DNA of 64,000 nucleotides from Sphingomonadales bacterium (GTDB lineage: Bacteria > Pseudomonadota > Alphaproteobacteria > Sphingomonadales > Sphingomonadaceae): the NCBI GenBank assembly GCA_014763545.1, contig JACXVD010000007.1, positions 815-64,814 of the forward strand, in the 5' to 3' direction. How positions within the stretch are numbered: position 1 is the stretch's first letter; the number at the start of each line of letters is the position of its first letter. A program made the position numbers and the translations under genes. The notes below the pieces were generated by a model. It was not told the DNA's origin, ran no database searches, and saw only the letters and a list, made by a program, of their open reading frames with translations. Below are positions 12 through 37,110 of this stretch, one piece after another.

Positions 12-788
12 GTGCTGACAGTGTTTCCCGACATGGCTAAGTCCGCTGATTGGCATGAGCGGCTCAAGCGTGAGCGTGCGAATTATAAGATGGCGGCCCG
101 AAGCCTCACAGAGCGATTAGAAAAAGAAGCCGATGAACGAAACCGCGAGAACGTAGAGCTAGTTGGCAGGGCGTCCAATGCAGCGCGCCGTATCTTCGAT
201 CAAAAGCGGCGCAAATGGCGGGAAGTGCAGGAGCAATGGCAAAAAGGTGCGGCAATGGCTGTCGCAGACATTCGGGCGACGGAGTCTTCTTACAGAGAAT
301 ACATGCACCTACGTGGGCCGGTCGAGTATTGGGAGGGCAAAGCCGAAGAGCATAAAGATCGCGAGCGGGCCGCCCGTGAACGTCTTTACTGGTATTTTCC
401 AATCACCCTAATCATCATGACCGCCGCCTTCGTCTGGGCTGCTTGTTTCCTAATAAGCCACCCAGATACTGCTAGCTCCAAGGCTCCTGTCGCTCTCTAT
501 GTCGTGGTTTCAGGCGGATTACTTCTTCTCTCATCAATCGCATTCTGGATAGGGCGAATACTGACGAAGCTTTACTTAAGTGAACATCATCTTCGGAATG
601 ATGCGGAAGAGCGCGCAGTCATGGCCAAGACTTACTTGGCCCTCACCAACGATGGCGCTGCAACCGAAGCCGAAAGGCAGATCGTTTTGAACTCGTTATT
701 CCGCCCAACACCTGATGGGATCGTTAAAGATGACGGACCTACCGACGCCAGCTTGCAAGGCCTAATCGCGCGAATGGCGACAAAATAG
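12..788 (+). CDS. Hypothetical membrane protein: charged coiled-coil N-terminus, two TM helices, conserved C-terminal domain. The ORF is open to the window edge and may be 5'-truncated.
   Basis: Long ORF with lower GC than the rest of the window (hand counts 42-57% per line). Two hydrophobic helices (YWYFPITLIIMTAAFVWAACFLI, VALYVVVSGGLLLLSSIAFWIGRIL). No stop between nt 3 and 12 in frame. No family recognised with certainty. Confidence 0.6.
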   Translation: MLTVFPDMAKSADWHERLKRERANYKMAARSLTERLEKEADERNRENVELVGRASNAARRIFDQKRRKWREVQEQWQKGAAMAVADIRATESSYREYMHLRGPVEYWEGKAEEHKDRERAARERLYWYFPITLIIMTAAFVWAACFLISHPDTASSKAPVALYVVVSGGLLLLSSIAFWIGRILTKLYLSEHHLRNDAEERAVMAKTYLALTNDGAATEAERQIVLNSLFRPTPDGIVKDDGPTDASLQGLIARMATK

Positions 789-810
789 TGATGACGGTCT
801 CAGTTTGCCA

Positions 811-876
811 AATACATAAATTCCAGGGACAGTGAATTCCGGGAATTCCGGGGACACAATACATAACTCCGGGCCC
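811..876. repeat. Cluster of short direct repeats (AATACATAA-N-TTCC[A/G]GG twice; GAATTCCGGG tandem) at the low-GC/high-GC boundary
   Basis: Read directly: aatacataaattccaggg ... gaattccgggaattccgggg ... aatacataactccgggcc. Confidence 0.45.
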
Positions 877-1166
877 TGATCTGGATTACGGTCACCGTCG
901 CAACACCCCCTGCACACGCGGCGTATTTGAGCCGATTTTCCTACACGCACCCTGTCTGCTAGCGAACACTGCTCCTTTCGACAGGTTCCGGACATGCTTG
1001 CCCTCGCTCCATCCTCGCCCATCGCGAACGCGCGTTTCCGTCGCGCGGTCGAAGGTGACAGATTGTCGGGCGGAATCGCGCTGCAAGCCGCACAGGGCCT
1101 TGCTGCGCGGGGCTGGGGGAGTTTTCGAAAAGCGGGCTGTCGGCGTAACAGGACCCAGCCGGATGG

Positions 1167-1469
1167 CTAGGCCGACGCGCGCAGTTCGGCCCATTCGGGA
1201 TGGCGGCGGAACATCGCTTCGACATAGGAGCATTGCGGGTCGATGCGGAAACCCTGCTCGCGCGCATCGGCCACCAGCGCCTCGACCAGCGCGGCGGCAA
1301 TGCCGCGCCCGCCGATTTCGGGCGGCACCAGCGTGTGGTCGGCCACGCGCACCCCGTCACGCGCCTTCCAGGTCAGCTTGCCGACCTTGTCGCTGCCGGG
1401 GACATGCGCGGTATAGACCCCGCCGTGTTCGTGCCCGCGATAGGTGATGTCCAGTTCGTCTTGCGCCAT
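1167..1469 (-). CDS. GNAT-family N-acetyltransferase (small YjdJ-like type)
   Basis: Internal Met (MAQDELDITY...) chosen as start. C-terminal GGRGIAAALVEALVADAREQGFRIDPQCSY resembles the acetyl-CoA-binding core of small GNAT proteins. Confidence 0.7.
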   Translation of the reverse strand: MAQDELDITYRGHEHGGVYTAHVPGSDKVGKLTWKARDGVRVADHTLVPPEIGGRGIAAALVEALVADAREQGFRIDPQCSYVEAMFRRHPEWAELRASA

Positions 1470-1523
1470 CTGTCCGCGTTCTCCTGCTTGGCGATGAACG
1501 CGCCGCTCTCTAAGGGCGTTCCC

Positions 1524-2531
1524 ATGCAATTCCTTTCAGACAATGCCGCCGCCGTCCATCCCGCCGTCTGGCAGGCGATGAAGGATGTCGACGCCGCCGA
1601 TGCGCCCTATGATGGCGACCGTGCCTCTGCCGCGCTCGACGATGCGATGGCGATGGTGTTCGGCAAGGAAGTGGCGGTGCTGTGGGTCGCCACCGGCACG
1701 GCGGCCAATTGCCTCGCGCTCGCTGCCATGTGCCCGCCGCATGGCGCGGTCGCGTGCCACCGCGAGGCGCATATCGAGGTCGACGAAGGCGGCGCACCGG
1801 GCTTCTTCATGCATGGCGCCAAGCTGCTGCTGTGCGGCGCGAGCGACGGGAGCGACCATGCCAAGCTGACGCCCGCCAGCCTCGCCGCCACGCTCGACCC
1901 GATCCGCAACGATGTCCACCAGGTCCAGCCGCATGCGCTCTCGATTACGCAGGCGAGCGAATATGGCTGCGTCTATTCGCCGGGCGAGCTGGCCGCGCTG
2001 GATGCCGAATGCGGGCGGCGCGGGCTGGGCTTCCATATGGACGGGGCGCGCTTCGCCAATGCCGTGGCCTTCGCCAACCGGCCGCCTGCCGAGGTCGCCG
2101 GTCCGGTCGATGCACTGAGCTTCGGCTTCATCAAGAACGGGGGGATGAGCGCGGAGGCGATTGTCTTCTTCGACACCGCGCTGGCCGATGTCGTGCGCTA
2201 TCGCCGCAAGCGGGCCGGGCATCTGCAGAGCAAGGGCCGCTATCTCGCGGCGCAGATCCTCGCCATGCTGGAGGGCGATGTGTGGCTGCACAATGCCGCC
2301 GCCGCCAATGCCGCGGCCGCCGAAATCGGCACAGCCTGCGGCGAGCGGCTGCTGCATCCGGTGCAGGCGAACGAGCTGTTCGTCGCCCTGACCCCGGATG
2401 AGCGTGCCGCGCTGCGCGCGCAGGGCTTCGGCTTTTACGACTGGGGGGCCGATGCGGCGCGCTTCGTCACCGCGTGGAACACGCGCGCCGAAGACGCCGC
2501 CGCACTGGCGCGGGCGATCGCCGGCCTATGA
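1524..2531 (+). CDS. ltaE: Low-specificity L-threonine aldolase (beta-eliminating lyase family, PLP-dependent)
   Basis: MQFLSDNAAAVHPAVWQAM... N-terminus and overall similarity to LtaE. The upstream part of the 1200.. ORF is antisense to the GNAT gene. Confidence 0.85.
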   Translation: MQFLSDNAAAVHPAVWQAMKDVDAADAPYDGDRASAALDDAMAMVFGKEVAVLWVATGTAANCLALAAMCPPHGAVACHREAHIEVDEGGAPGFFMHGAKLLLCGASDGSDHAKLTPASLAATLDPIRNDVHQVQPHALSITQASEYGCVYSPGELAALDAECGRRGLGFHMDGARFANAVAFANRPPAEVAGPVDALSFGFIKNGGMSAEAIVFFDTALADVVRYRRKRAGHLQSKGRYLAAQILAMLEGDVWLHNAAAANAAAAEIGTACGERLLHPVQANELFVALTPDERAALRAQGFGFYDWGADAARFVTAWNTRAEDAAALARAIAGL

Positions 2532-3451
2532 GCGAACCCGAACGGCACGCGCTGCTGCAGCCGCGCATCGCCCTGCCCTTCCTGCTGGTCACCCTGATCT
2601 GGGGCTCGACCTGGCTGGTGATCAAGGACCAGCTCGGGATGGCCCCGGCGAGCTGGTCGGTCACCTGGCGCTTTGCCATCGCGGCGGTCGGCATGGCGCT
2701 GCTCGCGCTGGTGCGGGGCGAGCGGCTGATGCTCGACCGGCAGGGGCAGATCGTCGCGATCGCGCTGGGCCTCACGCAGTTCTGCTTCAACTTCAATTTC
2801 GTCTACCGCGCCGAACAGCACCTGACATCGGGGCTGGTGGCGGTGCTGTTCGGCATCCTGATGGTGCCCAATGCACTGCTGGGTCGGCTGGTCCTGAAGA
2901 CGCCGATCACCCGCGGCTTCATGGCCGGGTCTGCGATCGGGCTGGCGGGCATCGCGCTGATGCTGGTGCACGAAGCGCGCATGGCCCCGCCCGAAGGCAA
3001 GGTCTGGCTGGGTATCGCGCTGACATTGCTGGCGATCCTGTGCGCATCGAGCGCCAATGTGCTGCAGGCGACGCCGGTCGCCGGGCGCCAGCGGCTGCTG
3101 CCGTTGCTCGCCTGGGCGCTGCTGTGGGGGGCGCTGGCCGATGCGGCGATCGCGTGGCTCACCGCCGGGCCGCCGGTAATCCCTGCCGACCTGCGCTATT
3201 GGGCGGGGGTGAGCTATCTCGGCATCGTCGGTTCGGTGCTGACCTTCCCGCTCTATTTCATGCTGATCCGCGAACTCGGGCCGGGCCGGGCGGCTTACAA
3301 CGGGGTGGCGGTGCCGGTGGTGGCGATGCTGCTGTCAACCCTGTTCGAAGCCTATCAGTGGTCGCTGCTGGCCGCCGCAGGCGGCGCGCTGGCGCTGCTC
3401 GGCATGGCGGTTGCGCTAAGGGCGCGCAATCCCGTGCGGAAGTCGGGGTAG
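2528..3451 (+). CDS. EamA/DMT-family transporter
   Basis: About 10 predicted TM helices with a typical EamA repeat architecture. The ATG overlaps the ltaE stop (ATGA). Confidence 0.8.
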   Translation: MSEPERHALLQPRIALPFLLVTLIWGSTWLVIKDQLGMAPASWSVTWRFAIAAVGMALLALVRGERLMLDRQGQIVAIALGLTQFCFNFNFVYRAEQHLTSGLVAVLFGILMVPNALLGRLVLKTPITRGFMAGSAIGLAGIALMLVHEARMAPPEGKVWLGIALTLLAILCASSANVLQATPVAGRQRLLPLLAWALLWGALADAAIAWLTAGPPVIPADLRYWAGVSYLGIVGSVLTFPLYFMLIRELGPGRAAYNGVAVPVVAMLLSTLFEAYQWSLLAAAGGALALLGMAVALRARNPVRKSG

Positions 3452-4188
3452 GCGGGGCGCCAGCCGAGCTCTCGCCGGGCCTTGCCGTTGGCGATGCGGC
3501 GGTTCTCGGCATAGAAGCCGCGCGCCATGGCGCTGAGCCCGGCCTCGTCCATCGTCTGCAGCGGCGGCGGGGCGAGGGCGAGCAGGCGGCAGGCTTCCTC
3601 GATCACCAGATTCTGGCTGCAGGGCAGATCGTCGGCGAGGTTGTAGGCACCCGGCGCAGCATCGCACTCGATCGCGGCGATCACGCCGCTGGCGATATCG
3701 TCCACATGCACCCGGCTGAACACCTGCCCCGGCAGGTCGATTCGATGCGCCTTGCCTGCGCGAACCCGGTCGAGCGCGCTGCGCCCCGGGCCGTAGATGC
3801 CCGGCAGGCGGAACACCCGCGCGCCCGCCGCCAGCCAGGCGGAATCGCAGGCAACCCGGGCGCCCCGCCGCCCGCCGGTCGGCGCTCTCTCGTCCACCCA
3901 CGCCCCGCCGGTATCGCCATAGACACCGGTGGAGGAGAGATAGCCGAGCCATTTGCCGCCCAGCAGCGCGCCGTATGCGTCCAGTACCGGGTCGCGACCG
4001 TCCTCTCCCGGCGGGACCGAGGAGAGCACATGACTGGCAGCACCCAGTGCGCGGGCCACGCCCTCCCGGTCCGCGAAGGCGAGACTGCCGGCGCTGCCGG
4101 TCGCATCGACCTGCCAGCCCTGCGCGGCCAGCCGGGCGGCGATGCGCGATGCGGTATAGCCGAGGCCGAAGACGAACAGGCGGGTCAT
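3355..4188 (-). CDS. NAD(P)-binding SDR/epimerase-family protein
   Basis: MTRLFVFGLGYTASRIAARL Rossmann-like N-terminus and epimerase-like core (STGVYGD). Start chosen at the internal Met. Its 3' end overlaps the convergent EamA gene. Confidence 0.7.
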   Translation of the reverse strand: MTRLFVFGLGYTASRIAARLAAQGWQVDATGSAGSLAFADREGVARALGAASHVLSSVPPGEDGRDPVLDAYGALLGGKWLGYLSSTGVYGDTGGAWVDERAPTGGRRGARVACDSAWLAAGARVFRLPGIYGPGRSALDRVRAGKAHRIDLPGQVFSRVHVDDIASGVIAAIECDAAPGAYNLADDLPCSQNLVIEEACRLLALAPPPLQTMDEAGLSAMARGFYAENRRIANGKARRELGWRPAYPDFRTGLRALSATAMPSSASAPPAAASSDH

Positions 4189-5459
4189 TCGGGCTTGGCA
4201 ATAGCTCCTGCGTCCTCGCCGAGATAGCCCGCAGGCGGATGTTCGATGGTGGCGCCGGGCACGTGGTCCTTCTTCCACTGCATCGCCATGCGCACGCGGG
4301 TCGCGCCCGAAGGATGGTCGAAGAACAGGAATTCCTCGACCGGGCCGGGTTCGATCTTGCGATATTCCGACAGGCGCATCGCCACTCGCGCGAAGCCGTC
4401 CGGCGCACGCGCGGCGTCCAACCCGAAGGCATCGGCGGCGCTCTCGTCCACCCGCACCATGGTGTTGAACGCCGGGGTGGCGAGCAGGAAGAATGCGCCC
4501 AGCAATATGCCCAGCACCGGCATCGACGCGGGGTCGGCCACATCGCGCACACCCCAGGCGCTGCCCCAACGGGCGATCATCATCGGGGCCAGTCGCGAGA
4601 CGATGAACAGACCGCTGGCGAACAGGACGAAGACGAAGCCCAGCAGGTACCAGACGTGGTTGAGCTTGTAGTGGCCCATCTCGTGGGCCATCACCGCCAT
4701 GATCTCCGGTTCGCTGGTACGGTTAAGCAGATTGTCGTTCAGCGAGATACGGATGGTGGGACCGATGCCCGACACATTGGCAGAAATCCGCTTGTGCTGC
4801 TTCGACTGGTCGAAGACGTAGATGTGGTCCGCCGGAATGTCGTAATTCCCGGCCATCGCCACGATTTTGTCGCGCAGCGGCCCGGAGGGCATCTCGGTGT
4901 AGGTGTTGAACAGCGGCGCGATATAGACCGGGGCGATCAGCATGCCGATCGCGGCGAACACCACCACCACCCCGGTGCCCCACAGCCACCAGCGGCGCGG
5001 TGCCTTGCGAATGACGAGGTAGATCAGCGCGATCAGCAACGGCTGCAGCGCCAGCCCGATGGCCAGATCGGTCGCCTGTTCGCCGAACCAGCCGCCAAAG
5101 CCCATGCTCATCAGGTCGTATTGCTTCTCGCGGATGAAGCCGGTGTAGATCGTCCACGGCAGCAGCAACACCCAGCCCACCAGCGTATAAAGCAGCGCGG
5201 TAACCCAGGCGATGGGAAACGGACGGCGGAAGAAACGTTCGCCCACATCGCGGAACCGCGCCGACAGGCGAAAGCGCAGCAGGAGCCCATCGACCACGAA
5301 GCCCACCAGCGCACCCCACAGGATCAACCAGTAGCCGCCTTCGAAATAGGCATCGGACTTGGCGCGCGCGGCACCTTGCAACGTGTCGAGATAGACGCGG
5401 GTCGCGGCATCGACATCGAAGCCGCCGCTCTGCGCGGCAGCCATCAGGTCAAGTATCAT
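4185..5459 (-). CDS. M48-family zinc metallopeptidase (Ste24/HtpX-like), membrane-bound
   Basis: HEMGHYKLNH (HExxH) motif and multiple TM helices. 4-nt overlap with the downstream SDR gene. Confidence 0.85.
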   Translation of the reverse strand: MILDLMAAAQSGGFDVDAATRVYLDTLQGAARAKSDAYFEGGYWLILWGALVGFVVDGLLLRFRLSARFRDVGERFFRRPFPIAWVTALLYTLVGWVLLLPWTIYTGFIREKQYDLMSMGFGGWFGEQATDLAIGLALQPLLIALIYLVIRKAPRRWWLWGTGVVVVFAAIGMLIAPVYIAPLFNTYTEMPSGPLRDKIVAMAGNYDIPADHIYVFDQSKQHKRISANVSGIGPTIRISLNDNLLNRTSEPEIMAVMAHEMGHYKLNHVWYLLGFVFVLFASGLFIVSRLAPMMIARWGSAWGVRDVADPASMPVLGILLGAFFLLATPAFNTMVRVDESAADAFGLDAARAPDGFARVAMRLSEYRKIEPGPVEEFLFFDHPSGATRVRMAMQWKKDHVPGATIEHPPAGYLGEDAGAIAKPE

Positions 5460-5602
5460 GGGTAAGCCCTCCTCCCGCGATGCTGCGTCCAGGGCAAGAT
5501 ACTGTCAATCGGGCGCAATATTCCCGATCTGCCAGCGCCCGGCACGGATCGACCGGCGTCGTGGGCATTGGACCGCGCGCAGAAAGATTCTAAAGACGCG
5601 CC

Positions 5603-8257: not shown

Positions 8258-9008
8258 CACCGTGGAGGCGATCCGCGCCGAAAGTCTGGCAGGCGTCCGC
8301 CACGCCTTCCTGGGGCGCCGGGGCGGGGTCAGCCAGGGGCTCGTCGCCGGGCTGAACGTGGGCTTCGGTGCGGATGACGACGATCGCGCAGTCGAGGAAA
8401 ACCGCCGCCGCGCGGTCGCCGCGGTGGCGCCGGGGGCGCAGCTGGTCACCTGTTACCAGGTCCATTCGCCAGAGGCGGTGATCGTGAGCGAGGCATGGAG
8501 CCACGACCAGCGCCCGCGCGCCGATGCGCTGGTTACCGACCGGCCTGGGCTGGTGCTGGGGATCGTCACCGCCGATTGCGCGCCGGTGCTGCTGGCGGAC
8601 CGGGAGACGGGGGTGGTCGCGGCGGCCCATGCGGGCTGGCGGGGCGCGCATGGCGGGGTGATCGAGGCGAGCGTTGCGGCGATGGAGCAGCTCGGCGCCC
8701 GGCCCGCCCGCATTGCTGCAGCGATCGGCCCGTGCATCGCGCAGGAAAGCTACGAGGTCGATGCGCGGTTTCGCGACAATTTCACCGCCGCAGACGACCG
8801 TTTTTTCGCGCCCGGTCGTGCGGATCACTGGCAGTTCGACCTCGAAGCCTATGTCGCCGCCCGGCTGCAGGCCGCCGGGGTCGGGCAGGTCGAGCCGCTG
8901 GGTCTCGATACCTATGGCGAGGAATCGCGCTTCTATTCCTTCCGCCGCGCTACCCACCGGGATGAGCCGACCTATGGCCGGCAATTTTCGCTGATCGCCT
9001 GCGATTGA
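8229..9008 (+). CDS. pgeF: Peptidoglycan editing factor PgeF / YfiH (DUF152) family
   Basis: HAFLGRRGGVS ... TADCAPVLL ... AHAGWRG ... FYSFRR motifs. The real start may be the GTG at 8262, just after the pepN stop. Confidence 0.85.
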   Translation: MNRSPAALADTVEAIRAESLAGVRHAFLGRRGGVSQGLVAGLNVGFGADDDDRAVEENRRRAVAAVAPGAQLVTCYQVHSPEAVIVSEAWSHDQRPRADALVTDRPGLVLGIVTADCAPVLLADRETGVVAAAHAGWRGAHGGVIEASVAAMEQLGARPARIAAAIGPCIAQESYEVDARFRDNFTAADDRFFAPGRADHWQFDLEAYVAARLQAAGVGQVEPLGLDTYGEESRFYSFRRATHRDEPTYGRQFSLIACD

Positions 9009-33225: not shown

Positions 33226-34209
33226 ATGAACAAGACCTCTGCCTCCGTCGAAAATGCACTCGAACGCGTCCTCGTGCTCGAAATGGTCCGCGTGACCGAA
33301 GCGGCTGCCATCGCCGCATCGGAACTTATCGGGCGCGGCGACGAGAAGGCGGCCGACCATGCCGCGGTCGAAGCGATGCGCAAGGCGTTCGACACGCTCT
33401 ATATCGACGGCACCGTGGTGATCGGCGAGGGCGAGCGCGACGAGGCGCCGATGCTCTATATCGGGGAGAAGGTCGGCGGCGCGCCGGGCCGCGGGCCCAA
33501 GATCGACATCGCGCTCGATCCGCTGGAAGGCACCACCATCACCGCCAAGGCCGGGCCCAATGCGCTGGCCGTGCTGGCGGCGGCGGAAGAGGGCTGCCTG
33601 CTCAACGCGCCCGACGTCTATATGGAAAAGCTGGCCGTGGGGCCGGGCTATCCCGAGGATATCATCAGCCTCGACAAGAGCGTGACCGAGAATGTCACCG
33701 CCGTGGCCGATGCCAAGGGGGTCGAGCCGTCCGACATCATCGTCTGCGTGCTCGACCGCCCGCGCCATGCCGAACTGATCGCCGAATTGCGCGACCTGGG
33801 CTGCGGCGTGGTGCTGATCGGCGATGGCGACGTGGCCGGGGTGATCGCGGTGACCGACCCGGAAACCACCATCGACATGTACATGGGTTCGGGCGGCGCG
33901 CCGGAAGGCGTGCTGGCGGCAGCCGCGCTGCGCTGCGTCGGCGGGCAGTTCAACGGCCGCCTGCTGTTCCGCAACGACGACGAACGCGCCCGCGCCCGCA
34001 AATGGGGGATCGAGGACCTCAACCGCATCTACAAGCTGGAAGATCTGGCGAAGGGCGATTGCATCTTCGCCGCCACCGGCGTGACCAGCGGATCGCTGCT
34101 CGAAGGGGTCAAGCGCCTGCGCGGCGGCAAGATGACCACCGAAAGCGTGGTGATGCGCGCATCCTCCGGCACGGTGCGCTGGATTCGGGGCGAGCATCAC
34201 ATCGACTGA
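33226..34209 (+). CDS. glpX: Class II fructose-1,6-bisphosphatase
   Basis: Full-length GlpX similarity (LDPLEGTT, DRPRH, GSGGAPEGV). Confidence 0.95.
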   Translation: MNKTSASVENALERVLVLEMVRVTEAAAIAASELIGRGDEKAADHAAVEAMRKAFDTLYIDGTVVIGEGERDEAPMLYIGEKVGGAPGRGPKIDIALDPLEGTTITAKAGPNALAVLAAAEEGCLLNAPDVYMEKLAVGPGYPEDIISLDKSVTENVTAVADAKGVEPSDIIVCVLDRPRHAELIAELRDLGCGVVLIGDGDVAGVIAVTDPETTIDMYMGSGGAPEGVLAAAALRCVGGQFNGRLLFRNDDERARARKWGIEDLNRIYKLEDLAKGDCIFAATGVTSGSLLEGVKRLRGGKMTTESVVMRASSGTVRWIRGEHHID

Positions 34210-34212
34210 GCG
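34175..34212 (+). repeat. Direct repeat copy 1 (authentic glpX 3' end including the stop)
   Basis: tgcgctggattcggggcgagcatcacatcgactgagcg; 35/38 identical to 34271..34308. Confidence 0.85.
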
Positions 34213-34227
34213 GTAGCAGGCGCCGCC

Positions 34228-34305
34228 ATGGCCCTTGCCGCAACGGTCCTGCGCACCTCCAAAGAGGAACTGCGCTGGATTTGGGGCGAACACCACATCG
34301 ACTGA
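34228..34305 (+). pseudogene. Diverged duplicate of the glpX C-terminus (25-codon fragment ending ...LRWIWGEHHID*)
   Basis: In-frame translation MALAATVLRTSKEELRWIWGEHHID* parallels the GlpX end VMRASSGTVRWIRGEHHID*. Confidence 0.55.
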
Positions 34306-34308
34306 GCG
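34271..34308 (+). repeat. Direct repeat copy 2 (glpX 3'-end duplicate)
   Basis: tgcgctggatttggggcgaacaccacatcgactgagcg; 3 mismatches to copy 1. Confidence 0.85.
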
Positions 34309-34373
34309 ACTGGCGGCGCTGTCCCGGTGCGGGCGGTGGACCGCCGACCGGCCGCTTTCGAAAAACTCCGCCC

Positions 34374-34838
34374 TCATGGCCCGCCTCCCCTGCCGGGGCG
34401 CGGCGCAGCTGCGGGCGGGTGGCGGCGCAGCAGCCGCAAAAGCGAGGAATTGTCGGGCTTGCGGCGGATCGCACTCATGCGCCCACGATAGATCACCGGC
34501 TTGATGAAGCCCGCCTCGACCCGCGCGAGCAGCACCGCATCTGTCACCTTCCGGAAATCCTCGCGCGCCGCCGCGCAGGCCCCGCTGCCCGGCGGCGCCA
34601 GCACCCGGTCCCACGCCTGCGCAAAACTCTCCGCACCCGCCCGCGCGCGCAGGCGATAGGCGCTCGTCCGGCTCATCCCCACCCCGCGCGCCGCCGCCCC
34701 GACCGAGCCGGTGCAATAGAGCAGCGCCAGGAACCCGCACTGCCGCCCCTCGCTCCACCCGTCACGGCGGGCGCGCAAAGGCACCGGACGGAAAAACCCC
34801 GGGCGGCGGCGGATGCGGTGGGCAGGCGGCTTGCTCAT
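34374..34838 (-). CDS. Hypothetical protein with a probable helix-turn-helix
   Basis: GSVGAAARGVGMSRTSAYRLRAR resembles an HTH. Basic N-terminus. High GC, unlike the adjacent islet. Start at the internal Met MSKPPAH. Confidence 0.55.
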   Translation of the reverse strand: MSKPPAHRIRRRPGFFRPVPLRARRDGWSEGRQCGFLALLYCTGSVGAAARGVGMSRTSAYRLRARAGAESFAQAWDRVLAPPGSGACAAAREDFRKVTDAVLLARVEAGFIKPVIYRGRMSAIRRKPDNSSLLRLLRRHPPAAAPRPGRGGGP

Positions 34839-34922
34839 CGGCGAGCTTAAGCCATGGATGGGGGTGTGTAGGAAAGGGGGCTGGGAGATCCCCAAGAAAG
34901 GTGGAACGCGGTGGTCCCTCCG

Positions 34923-35624
34923 TCACACTTGAGGTTCGAGGCTCAATCCAAGTGCGCGCCCCACCAATGGAGTGGGATCGGCGCTCTCATTGCGCCAGTT
35001 CACCCGGCTGGGGTGAGTGGCTGTTACGACCGAAAGGCCATCGGCATTTCTGTGGGTGGTGCTCATCCAACGTCTTTTGTTGTGCTCAACGAATGTGTCA
35101 ATCTGCTCGGAAGCCTCGAGCCTTTCACGCACCCAGAGACCAGCGGTCTTACCGAAACACAAGATGGTGCGAATGTTCAGGCTCTCGATCACGGCAGCAT
35201 GGATAGGCCAACAGGCCGCAAGAAGATCAGACTTCTCCTGCGCTAGGTCATTTTCGCTTCGAGTCTGCACGAAGACCACGTTGCTGGTAGGAACCCGATG
35301 TGGATCCAGGCCGAGGCGACCAAGCATGTGAAGTATCTGGGGCTGAAGTCCCCAGGTACCGGGGGGCGCGCACTCCCAGGAACTGGTATATTCTGACCAG
35401 GGTGCATCCGCTCTTTTGAATTCGGCCAGTTTGCTCGCGATCGTGACGGTCGGGACGTCGGCGGGGATACCGCCAGGGTTCAGGCCAAGCACATAGAGGG
35501 GCGCCTTTTCGACGAACGCCTCTTTGCCAGAATAAAAGACCGAGCCGGAGCGTTTCAGTAAGTCGCTCGGCAAGCGATCCACTGCTGTTCTGATCGCTGA
35601 TGGAATTGCCTCATACGAAATCAT
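34923..35624 (-). CDS. UDG-superfamily DNA glycosylase-like protein (SMUG/MUG-like motifs), lower GC
   Basis: Motif 1 LYVLGLNPGG (nt 35469..35486), mid-region ILCFGKTAG, motif 2 ATHPS (nt 35007..35015). Strong SD (gggagggg) upstream of the ATG. Confidence 0.7.
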   Translation of the reverse strand: MISYEAIPSAIRTAVDRLPSDLLKRSGSVFYSGKEAFVEKAPLYVLGLNPGGIPADVPTVTIASKLAEFKRADAPWSEYTSSWECAPPGTWGLQPQILHMLGRLGLDPHRVPTSNVVFVQTRSENDLAQEKSDLLAACWPIHAAVIESLNIRTILCFGKTAGLWVRERLEASEQIDTFVEHNKRRWMSTTHRNADGLSVVTATHPSRVNWRNESADPTPLVGRALGLSLEPQV

Positions 35625-35823
35625 CTTCCCCTCCCATCCTGAACGAGCCCTCGGAACATCAATTGAACATACTGAAATGGCAAGAGATTTATTTTTTCAC
35701 TTAATGCCAGCTCAAGCCTGTGCCCCATCTTTTGCCTTTTCCCGGAGCGACAGGGGTGCTTTCCCCGAATGCCGCGATCTGGGTGCGGGCAGGAGAAAAC
35801 TTCGTCCTGAGAAGGTGACCCAG

Positions 35824-36858
35824 ATGGCATATGACGATGAAACCAACGAACGACTATGGCTTGCCGAATTCGGCCGCAGCATCACTCAAGACGCCCTTGA
35901 AATGGCGGATGGTTTGAAAACAGCCGAGATCGCCGGAATGGCTGAGTGTTACCTTGCGATACTGATCGATCAGCCGAGCAGATCGAGAGAAACCCTGACG
36001 CTAGCACAAGCTGGTGAAAGGCTTGCTACTAAGCTGATCACTCGCAAAGCGCAGGGAAGCCTCGTGACAGGTCTCCCTGCAATCGATGAGCACTCAGTCG
36101 CTTTGCGGGGCGGAAGTTTGATAGCCCTGGCCGGTTCTGATCGGGCAATTTCTAGTGCTCTCGCCACGACAATCGCAACCACTCTAGCACACACTTTGTG
36201 GCAGGATCGGATGAAGGATCGAATGCCGTCTGAGTCACGCGGCGCAGCAGTAGCCTATTTCAGCCTTAGACTATCTGCCGATTTCATTGCCCTGAGCACC
36301 CTCAAGCAGCTAACAAGTCAAAACGGCGAACACCTGATGACGCTCTCCACTCCAGAGGGACGGGCCGCTCTAAAAGCGGCTTGCCATAAGTTTTCAGCCT
36401 TGCCCCTCTTTCTAGAGGAAGACGCCGAGCTATCTCTGATGCAGATGTTGGCGCGCTCTAGGACGTTGATTAGGCGTCACGACACACGTTTAATTGTCGT
36501 GGATGACATCGGCTTGCTGCGAGAATGTCAGTGCGACACGTACCAGGCCAATTCTAAGTCGCGGAAGTTGCGGCAACTGAAGTCGATGGCAGAATTGAAC
36601 AATGTTGCGGTGATCGCCCTTTGTCCTCAGGGAGATTCAAATGACATGGACCAAGTGCCAGAGCTTCTTAAGTTCGCCGATGAGGTTTGGATTGCTGGCC
36701 CATCAAATCGGTCAGCACCCTTAAGGCCCAACTCGGGCCGTCTGTGGGAGCAAGAGATTGCCTTCACGGTGGTGGACCCGCTTTTCGGAGCGAGTGGTCG
36801 GACGAGCCTAAAAATCGACGTTGATATCGGATACGCGTGTGAGATGCCAAAAGAGTAG
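35824..36858 (+). CDS. DnaB-C-terminal/RecA-fold protein with degenerate Walker A (predicted pseudo-ATPase), lower GC
   Basis: Collinear with the DnaB C-domain. ALAGSDRAISS replaces A-R-P-S-M-GKT; FSLRL replaces FSLEM; Walker B is retained (LIVVDD); the LKSMAELNNVAVIALCPQ segment resembles LKALAKELNVPVVALSQ. Start at 35824, preceded by gagaagg. Confidence 0.65.
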   Translation: MAYDDETNERLWLAEFGRSITQDALEMADGLKTAEIAGMAECYLAILIDQPSRSRETLTLAQAGERLATKLITRKAQGSLVTGLPAIDEHSVALRGGSLIALAGSDRAISSALATTIATTLAHTLWQDRMKDRMPSESRGAAVAYFSLRLSADFIALSTLKQLTSQNGEHLMTLSTPEGRAALKAACHKFSALPLFLEEDAELSLMQMLARSRTLIRRHDTRLIVVDDIGLLRECQCDTYQANSKSRKLRQLKSMAELNNVAVIALCPQGDSNDMDQVPELLKFADEVWIAGPSNRSAPLRPNSGRLWEQEIAFTVVDPLFGASGRTSLKIDVDIGYACEMPKE

Positions 36859-37110
36859 GCAATAGAGGGTGGACTGCTCACTGTTGCCGCCAAACGCGGC
36901 TGCCCGCAACGGGCGACTAGGCGTCTCCTGCCTGAATAATTGACGCTCTTTGACATGACCAATACCCAGTCATCACCGGTCAGGCCCGGGGTGACGGGCA
37001 TTGCTCGGGGCCACCCCCAAACCCCCAACTTCCTCCGCCGCCCTGTTGCAATCCCGTGACCGGGCGCTATCGCCCGCGGGACGACGATTCCCTGCTTCGA
37101 GGATGGCCCG

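Follow-up and report, generated by a model that had tools for sequence, protein, structure and literature searches.

The window analyzed here is a stretch of 64,000 nucleotides from a Sphingomonadales bacterium (contig JACXVD010000007.1, positions 815 to 64,814), and it contains a low-GC (guanine-plus-cytosine) islet of about 2 kb (34900 to 36950, not assigned to a strand) located between prs and a gene for a 154-residue protein next to glpX. The islet consists of two genes only, which are divergently oriented and separated by an intergenic region of 199 bp: a gene for a UDG (uracil-DNA glycosylase) superfamily protein on the reverse strand (34923 to 35624) and, on the forward strand (35824 to 36858), the gene considered here, which codes for a protein of 344 amino acids made up of a helical hairpin, a linker helix, and a degenerate C-terminal domain with a RecA fold. 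We refer to this protein as the pseudo-helicase, since its sequence indicates descent from the replicative helicase DnaB. The flanks of the islet are high-GC alphaproteobacterial chromosome, and prs falls into a 90% identity cluster composed mostly of sequences from Novosphingobium and other Sphingomonadales. The GC content is 0.51 to 0.59 in the islet compared to 0.64 to 0.75 in the flanks, and the GC content at third codon positions (GC3) is 0.62 in the UDG-like gene and 0.56 in the DnaB-like gene, compared to 0.85 to 0.89 in the genes on the glpX side, prs, and hom. It follows that both islet genes are recent imports, in line with the accessory-DNA setting proposed in a first-pass annotation, which a model had made from the letters of the window.

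The maximal open reading frame (ORF) of the DnaB-like gene starts at an ATG at 35677, and the 49 additional residues that it would provide are unrelated to DnaB. We favor the ATG at 35824 because a Shine-Dalgarno-like AAGG(TG) motif ends about 9 nucleotides before it, because the same 344-residue product is annotated in public assemblies, and because the region from 35665 to 35726 corresponds to the upstream element of the UDG cassette described below. The 250 nucleotides 3' of the gene are not unusually structured (z = -1.6) and contain no partner ORF; on the forward strand downstream of the gene, no ORF of at least 50 residues is present, and no RES gene was found among the neighboring ORFs. 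Furthermore, no Rfam family gave a match. The gene is carried by three public contigs, all of them 100% identical to the window.

The relationship with the C-terminal RecA domain of DnaB, which had been proposed from the segment-by-segment reading of the translation, is borne out by Pfam, hhalign, AlphaFold2, and Foldseek alike. The Pfam family DnaB_C (PF03796) matched with an E value of 1.2e-15 and 58 bits, compared to a cut-off of 27, over positions 2 to 176 of the 255 of the profile. The best NCBIfam model, PRK09165, aligned residues 12 to 267 with its positions 128 to 390 of 497 (E=6.4e-22) and scored 77.8 bits, with a cut-off of 540, and TIGR00665 scored 58.2 bits, with a cut-off of 385. 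Since these cut-offs are not reached, the pseudo-helicase lies outside the replicative-helicase equivalogs TIGR00665 and PRK09165. The comparison with 27 canonical DnaBs by hhalign gave a probability of 100% and placed residues 6 to 343 on DnaB positions 123 to 497, and the AlphaFold2 model (predicted local distance difference test score [pLDDT], 82; predicted template modeling score [pTM], 0.82) is confident throughout, the C-terminal strands included. Moreover, the best 50 Foldseek matches in the PDB were all DnaB or G40P, with template modeling (TM) scores up to 0.74, and the best viral structural matches were phage DnaB-type helicases. As for the KaiC/RadA/AAA_25 branch, which had been named as another possible fold, neither PF06745 nor PF13481 matched, and radB was reached only with an E value of 0.05; the top structural matches are all DnaB.

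A recognizable DnaB N-terminal domain had been reported as missing, and indeed Pfam gave no match to PF00772, and the alignment with DnaB begins only at about position 123 to 128. What follows the globular head is retained: residues 6 to 76 (35839 to 36051, forward strand) correspond to the linker helix and to the helical hairpin that belongs to the N-terminal domain of DnaB, according to the AlphaFold2 model, the NCBIfam match, and the hhalign alignment with DnaB positions 123 to 200. In the model, the hairpin helices span residues 6 to 25 and 33 to 49, and the linker helix spans residues 60 to 76. In DnaB, the hairpin and the linker helix are the elements of oligomerization and loader contact, and the globular head is the primase-binding element. 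The pseudo-helicase may still oligomerize, as the first-pass annotation had suggested, because the linker helix and the C-terminal domain, which are the oligomerization elements of DnaB, are retained according to both the AlphaFold2 model and the Foldseek comparison.

The state of the catalytic motifs was established column by column against the 149 best matches and 64 canonical DnaBs, using the MAFFT columns and the hhalign alignments. The Walker A motif, or P-loop (36124 to 36156, forward strand), reads ALAGSDRAISS in place of ILAGRPGMGKT, with the replacements Gly107 to Arg, Gly109 to Ile, Lys110 to Ser, and Thr111 to Ser. In motif H1a (36259 to 36273, forward strand), FSLRL(S) is found instead of FSLEM(S), and Arg149 (36268 to 36270) takes the place of the catalytic Glu. 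The Walker B motif (36490 to 36507, forward strand) is LIVVDD, with Asp227 kept, and the YLQL that follows in canonical DnaBs has become DIGL. Further downstream, in motif H3 and the shortened motif H4 (36607 to 36681, forward strand), ALSQLSR is replaced by ALCPQGD, and the RESG loop, canonically RESGxIEQDAD, by which DnaB binds single-stranded DNA, is gone, with the deletion of about 11 residues. Finally, at the Lys/Arg finger (36775 to 36783, forward strand), AKxRxG has become VDPLFG, in which Asp318-Pro-Leu320 correspond to the changes K318D and R320L, and hhalign pairs VVDPLFGASG with VAKSRHGSTG in this arginine-finger segment. The readings and positions given earlier for ALAGSDRAISS, FSLRL, and LIVVDD are correct, the segment LKSMAELNNVAVIALCPQ noted as conserved is present in the ORF, and the inactivation of the NTPase motifs extends beyond the Walker A motif and the catalytic Glu to motifs H3 and H4 and the Arg finger.

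On this comparison, the Walker B Asp is the sole survivor among the catalytic and DNA-binding motifs, and the pseudo-helicase would neither translocate on DNA nor unwind it. That the protein still has NTPase or helicase activity through a noncanonical active site is highly improbable. The retained Walker B Asp and RecA fold would speak for such activity, but replacement or deletion has affected every one of the P-loop Gly, Lys, and Thr residues, the catalytic Glu, the Gln of H3, the loop of H4, and the Arg finger, and no RecA-fold NTPase is known that works without the P-loop lysine.

In spite of these losses, the origin of the protein is still legible. Its ancestor is, judging from the signatures retained, a dnaB of the alphaproteobacterial type, because the best NCBIfam model is PRK09165 and because the segment "RRHDxxLIVVD" and the insert "...SRGAAVAYFSL", which separates Walker A from H1a, are common to the pseudo-helicase and the alphaproteobacterial DnaBs. 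With the latter (SF4; PF00772 plus PF03796) it shares the architecture from the hairpin to the RecA-fold C-terminal domain, the insert, and the Walker B Asp; different from them, it lacks the head and the catalytic motifs, and its gene is located on an accessory islet of low GC content, not at a core locus. The comparison thus shows what, from its sequence, is an intact, imported dnaB descendant without the N-terminal head and without the residues for NTP binding and hydrolysis, coupling, and single-stranded DNA binding, in which the hairpin, the linker helix, and the RecA core are kept.

The pattern of replacements is also informative on how these losses came about. Among the 71 positions conserved in at least 90% of the canonical DnaBs, 24 are kept and 47 are replaced; the conserved hydrophobic positions are still hydrophobic in 19 cases out of 24, whereas those occupied by polar residues, Gly, or Pro are kept in 12 cases out of 47. 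In a neutral simulation, where point substitutions were introduced until 47 of the 71 marked residues had been replaced (about 580 substitutions), none of 300 runs was free of stop codons, with a mean of 10 stops and a minimum of 3; since indels were ignored, the test is conservative. The open frame, the retained hydrophobic core, and the confident fold suggest that, after the catalytic constraints were lost, the gene went through a long evolution while its product was translated and folded. Simple neutral decay appears unlikely, and we infer that selection kept the pseudo-helicase folded for much of its history, as would be expected of a pseudo-enzyme working by binding. Pseudo-ATPases and pseudo-helicases of this kind, such as the PriA of Deinococcus and the Shu-complex paralogues of Rad51, have kept the fold, lost the NTPase motifs, and retained a function through the binding of protein or DNA. 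These pseudo-ATPases of the RecA superfamily belong to different families, and no sequence relationship between them and the pseudo-helicase was seen beyond the RecA fold (XRCC3, E=0.009).

As regards the relatives of the protein, a word-indexed search of 5.8 billion clusters returned the query itself only. When 1.84 billion representatives were scanned exhaustively with HMMER, 560 matched with E<1e-3, 13 of them below 1e-10, the best being 31% identical. About 85% of the best 149 matches are canonical DnaBs with GK[ST] and FSLEM, and a profile search retrieved canonical DnaBs plus P0123, one of the degenerate paralogues described below. In a neighbor-joining tree built from the RecA core, all other sequences are about equally distant from the query, at about 30% identity, and the query forms no demonstrable clade with P0123 or with the other degenerate matches P0122 and P0131. 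The PHROGs database gave generic DnaB-like helicase families only, and the phage GenBank collection and IMG/VR gave three weak matches and four weak loci, respectively. The first-pass annotation had considered that its reading would fall if the homologues generally retained GK[ST] and this copy were a decaying pseudogene; the first part of this proviso describes the matches well, since they mostly keep GK[ST] and no family with a conserved loss emerges from them, but the second part is disfavored by the results on the reading frame and the fold.

The degenerate DnaB paralogues are few, are concentrated at the top of the match list, and occur in accessory, mobile, or conflict-related contexts. 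In the nearest of them (P0122, P0123, P0124, and P0131), the position of the catalytic Glu is occupied by Lys, Gln, or Arg. The best matches, P0122 and P0123, show 31% identity with the query (E values of 2e-23 and 8e-21): P0123 is a full-length protein in which the Glu is replaced by Lys, and P0122, without the N-terminal head, has GKA in the P-loop and the same Glu-to-Lys replacement; P0124 has a frameshifted tail. The genes of P0122 and P0123 are convergent to an operon coding for a ParB_N/N6_N4 methyltransferase (MTase), a DUF5681 protein, and the terminase TerL (L013, 8001 to 12796; L014, 444 to 4948), the products of which are 83 to 86% identical between the two loci, and a fragment of an IS5 transposase gene directly precedes P0122. 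No portal or capsid genes were seen after TerL at these two loci, and the neighboring genes differ between them. Since P0122 and P0123 are only 39% identical to each other, compared to 83 to 86% in the flanking genes, the slot occupied by the DnaB-like gene is hypervariable or has been subject to exchange. The pseudo-helicase is similar to P0122, P0123, and P0131 in the basic residue (Lys or Arg) at the position of the catalytic Glu and in the accessory or mobile context, and to P0122 also in its start position and missing head. However, P0122 and P0123 keep GK[TA] and adjoin phage packaging genes, and no similarity to TerL, DUF5681, or the ParB-MTase was found in the window.

The other degenerate paralogues are associated with different partners. 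P0131, which is encoded on a JGI contig (genes from 590 to 5546), is a full-length protein with CAD in the P-loop and Arg in place of the catalytic Glu; its gene overlaps a DUF4268 gene by 4 nucleotides, a gene for a caspase-like protease (Peptidase_C14) follows downstream, and a transposase gene is nearby, a neighborhood resembling those of conflict systems. In P0128 (Ensifer sp. MPMI2T, SRXN01000005.1; L023, 6001 to 7916), a degenerate DnaB_C domain with the P-loop GGDGATRTK is fused to an Xre helix-turn-helix (HTH) domain and the toxin-binding antitoxin domain MbcA/ParS, and the gene is located directly upstream of, and overlaps by 4 nucleotides, a gene for a RES-domain toxin. P0128 may be an antitoxin with a sensor domain that mimics the replisome; we found no literature on a fusion of this type. 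Compared to P0128, which resembles the RES-Xre, MbcT/MbcA, and ParT/ParS systems, the pseudo-helicase has in common the DnaB_C domain without an N-terminal part, the destroyed P-loop, and a Pfam match ending at about position 180 of 255; different from it, the pseudo-helicase lacks the Xre-HTH and ParS_C domains and a nearby RES toxin, the two proteins are 28% identical, and P0128 keeps the catalytic Glu. P0128 shows that immune or toxin modules can have a dead DnaB_C domain attached to them. Finally, P0129, P0145, and P0407 (L024 to L028) are DnaB_C proteins without the N-terminal part in which the Glu is replaced by Ala or Thr; a gene for a coiled-coil protein of 108 residues always comes directly after theirs, and together they form two-gene islets in housekeeping DNA, for example, at 9001 to 10337 of L028, on a contig of 1 Mb. 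Our literature search returned no paper on catalytically dead DnaB paralogues.

The neighbor of the pseudo-helicase gene within the islet codes for a protein of 233 amino acids, with the motifs GLNPGG and HPS intact, that belongs to a widespread family of mobile solo genes. It can be confidently assigned to the UDG superfamily on the basis of the predicted fold and of motifs A (GxNPG type) and B (HPS): Pfam UDG matched with 25.4 bits, compared to a cut-off of 24.3, the AlphaFold2 model has a pLDDT of 94.6, and Foldseek retrieved family-4 UDG, UdgX, SMUG, and TDG with E values down to 1e-7, with no significant sequence match to solved structures. GLNPGG and HP are invariant over 36 homologues (N49, P50, G51, H204, and P205). 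There are at least 287 homologues, always encoded by solo genes, in contexts such as holC|ndk, rplI|amn, the region downstream of pnp, and the vicinity of a resolvase gene and an integrase fragment (loci including L004, L005, and L007 to L010); at the alphaproteobacterial loci, the gene is typically 7 to 12 GC points below its flanks. The upstream alignment of the window with L005, L008, and L007 shows a conserved promoter-like element, CACAGGC-TTGAGC-17 nucleotides-ATAAAT (35687 to 35723, reverse strand), at the inner edge of the UDG module, and the homology found by blastn with L005 and L008 extends as far as about 35726. From these sequence features, the UDG-like gene can be regarded as a mobile cassette that is self-contained and has its own promoter-like element. 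Solo genes of the UDG fold in low-GC DNA have been described as antiphage effectors, namely, Brig1 (PMC11078745) and Brig2 (bioRxiv 10.1101/2025.10.29.685425). The neighbor resembles these in the UDG fold, the solo gene, the low GC content, and the scattered distribution, sometimes near recombinases, a likeness drawn from their descriptions, and its family is a candidate for a Brig-like antiphage glycosylase.

A conserved pairing of the two islet genes was considered and rejected, because at eight other UDG-like loci no DnaB-like gene is present within a distance of 6 kb; it follows that the two genes do not form a conserved system. For the same reason, a two-gene system in which the pseudo-helicase would target or regulate the glycosylase, for example, at replication forks, appears improbable. 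The divergent orientation, the short intergenic region, the common islet, and the similar GC3 values of the two genes would fit such a system. However, the UDG-like cassette is self-contained, has its own promoter-like element, and occurs alone at those eight loci, in different housekeeping contexts; moreover, a Sphingomicrobium metagenome-assembled genome has a UDG homologue (68% identity) on one contig and the nearest DnaB-like relative on another.

In the light of these observations, we propose that the pseudo-helicase is a noncatalytic binder of DnaB-family rings or of their partners, which would act as a nonproductive or decoy subunit in conflicts, and we give this reading a rough probability of 0.45. 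In DnaB, the linker helix and the C-terminal domain mediate the docking of the subunits on one another and are contacted by the loaders DciA, DnaC, and lambda P. It is possible to hypothesize that the pseudo-helicase uses its retained linker helix and C-terminal surfaces for docking on a DnaB-family helicase or on a partner of it, and that it would thereby work as a poison or decoy subunit or as a protein sequestering such partners, in a setting of conflicts between the host, phages, and other mobile elements. Such a role fits a tiny imported islet adjoining a Brig-like solo glycosylase cassette, and it is made plausible by the fact that other degenerate DnaB paralogues adjoin a phage terminase gene or a caspase-like protease gene or are fused to the antitoxin of a RES toxin. 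The decoy or sensor role advanced in the first-pass annotation is plausible in this framework.

The same docking surfaces could also serve a different purpose, that is, an accessory function for a mobile element since lost, in which the protein, as an assembly chaperone or a loader-like adaptor, would have recruited the host DnaB to a phage, plasmid, or satellite origin. Loaders use the linker helix and the C-terminal domain, the complexes DnaB-DciA, DnaB-DnaC, and DnaB-lambda P are among the Foldseek matches (8a3v, 6qel, and 9oa1), and DnaB paralogues occur beside phage packaging genes and in the replication modules of sphingomonad megaplasmids, where a canonical extra dnaB is found (parA-parB-repA-dnaB). 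However, no origin, initiator, integrase, or other element gene was seen in the islet, and the one plasmid dnaB retrieved from the plasmid collection is fully canonical; the islet itself had no DNA match in that collection. Furthermore, no helicase loader is known to derive from DnaB, and we regard this possibility as doubtful.

A broader, and unlikely, extension of the proposal is that dead DnaB paralogues make up a recurrent, undescribed class of replisome mimics active in the conflict between phages and their hosts, in which the protein of the window would be a stand-alone member and each islet gene would be independent. These mimics could serve as traps for phage proteins by which the host helicase is hijacked or inhibited, a possibility suggested by P0128, or they could coassemble with phage-encoded DnaB-type helicases and poison them; the DnaB-like and Brig-like glycosylase genes would then have been imported as a two-gene mini defense islet.

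Several points weigh against the proposed role as a noncatalytic binder. The pseudo-helicase is effectively an orphan, and the paralogues found in conflict contexts are about 28 to 31% identical to it; since none of them is closer to it than the canonical DnaBs, their contexts are suggestive only and transfer weakly. With the best homologue at 31% identity and the three public contigs identical, neither the conservation of the loss nor present-day selection can be measured. The neutral simulation assumes a canonical ancestor and ignores a phage helicase that diverged for a long time while still active and was inactivated recently, and the AlphaFold2 model is driven by the DnaB alignment. No sigma-70 promoter consensus was found for the gene, and terminator-like sites are at chance level. 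Finally, in addition to the lack of a DnaB-like gene at the other UDG-like loci, PADLOC-DB v2 (2023, which predates Brig1) gave no family for the DnaB-like, UDG-like, or 154-residue protein.

Some of these points would be expected if the gene were instead an inert relic from a replication module that once belonged to a prophage, satellite, or plasmid, carried in with the UDG cassette or truncated by it and still intact because the transfer was recent. This explanation, which we consider possible though on balance unlikely, agrees with an orphan without a conserved partner and without a promoter consensus, and with the absence of the N-terminal domain from a gene that abuts the promoter element of the UDG module; furthermore, the nearest relatives P0122 and P0123 lie in terminase-containing clusters resembling prophage remnants, one of them with the IS5 fragment before it, and the tail of P0124 is frameshifted. 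However, a relic does not readily account for 344 codons that stay open despite the near-saturating loss of DnaB-invariant residues, as in none of the 300 simulations, or for a hydrophobic core kept in preference to the other conserved positions and a fold predicted with confidence as far as the C-terminal strands.

The interest of the noncatalytic binder lies in the fact that DnaB, the replicative helicase, is essential and that phages often target it when they take over the cell. A stably folded DnaB derivative without catalysis would be a probe for ring assembly, loader binding, and primase recruitment, and if the role in conflicts holds true, it would represent immunity or exclusion in which a core component of the replisome is mimicked at the molecular level; the RES-antitoxin fusion P0128 offers a testable model for the coupling of such mimics to effectors. 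If the gene is a relic, nothing more than a small imported islet of little consequence is present at this locus. In either case, the pseudo-helicase is a singleton variant of a well-known family, and the broader pattern of degenerate paralogues, in particular the RES-antitoxin fusion, is the most interesting lead.

With regard to the borders of the islet, the Novosphingobium prs cluster was tried as an empty site, and no boundary could be defined from it because the upstream synteny differs, nadE being found in the position of glpX. Among the Novosphingobium loci, one strain has a gene for a 232-residue protein (L017, 9241 to 9939) between an inositol monophosphatase gene and a gene for a 133-residue protein, and the same site is without it in L015 and L016, where the flanks are about 97% identical; this indel was considered as a UDG-like gene and rejected, being unrelated.

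The 154-residue protein encoded beside the islet (34374 to 34838, reverse strand) has a host-like GC3 of 0.85. Its best-supported match is PHROG 4044, "terminase small subunit" (E=2.3e-7), next to weak matches to HTH models; no other sequence falls into its 90% identity cluster, and it has no relationship with the DUF5681 proteins encoded at L013 and L014. An 18-nucleotide inverted repeat with one mismatch (34834 to 34851 and 36667 to 36684) brackets the UDG-like gene and codons 1 to 287 of the DnaB-like gene; considered as a border of the islet, it is probably due to chance, since 3 of 60 dinucleotide shuffles match it. Finally, a segment of 49 nucleotides at 34175 to 34223, comprising the last 35 or so nucleotides of glpX and the sequence just 3' of it, is duplicated 96 nucleotides further on, at 34271 to 34319, with 84% identity, and this duplication of the glpX 3' end could be an old insertion or recombination scar.

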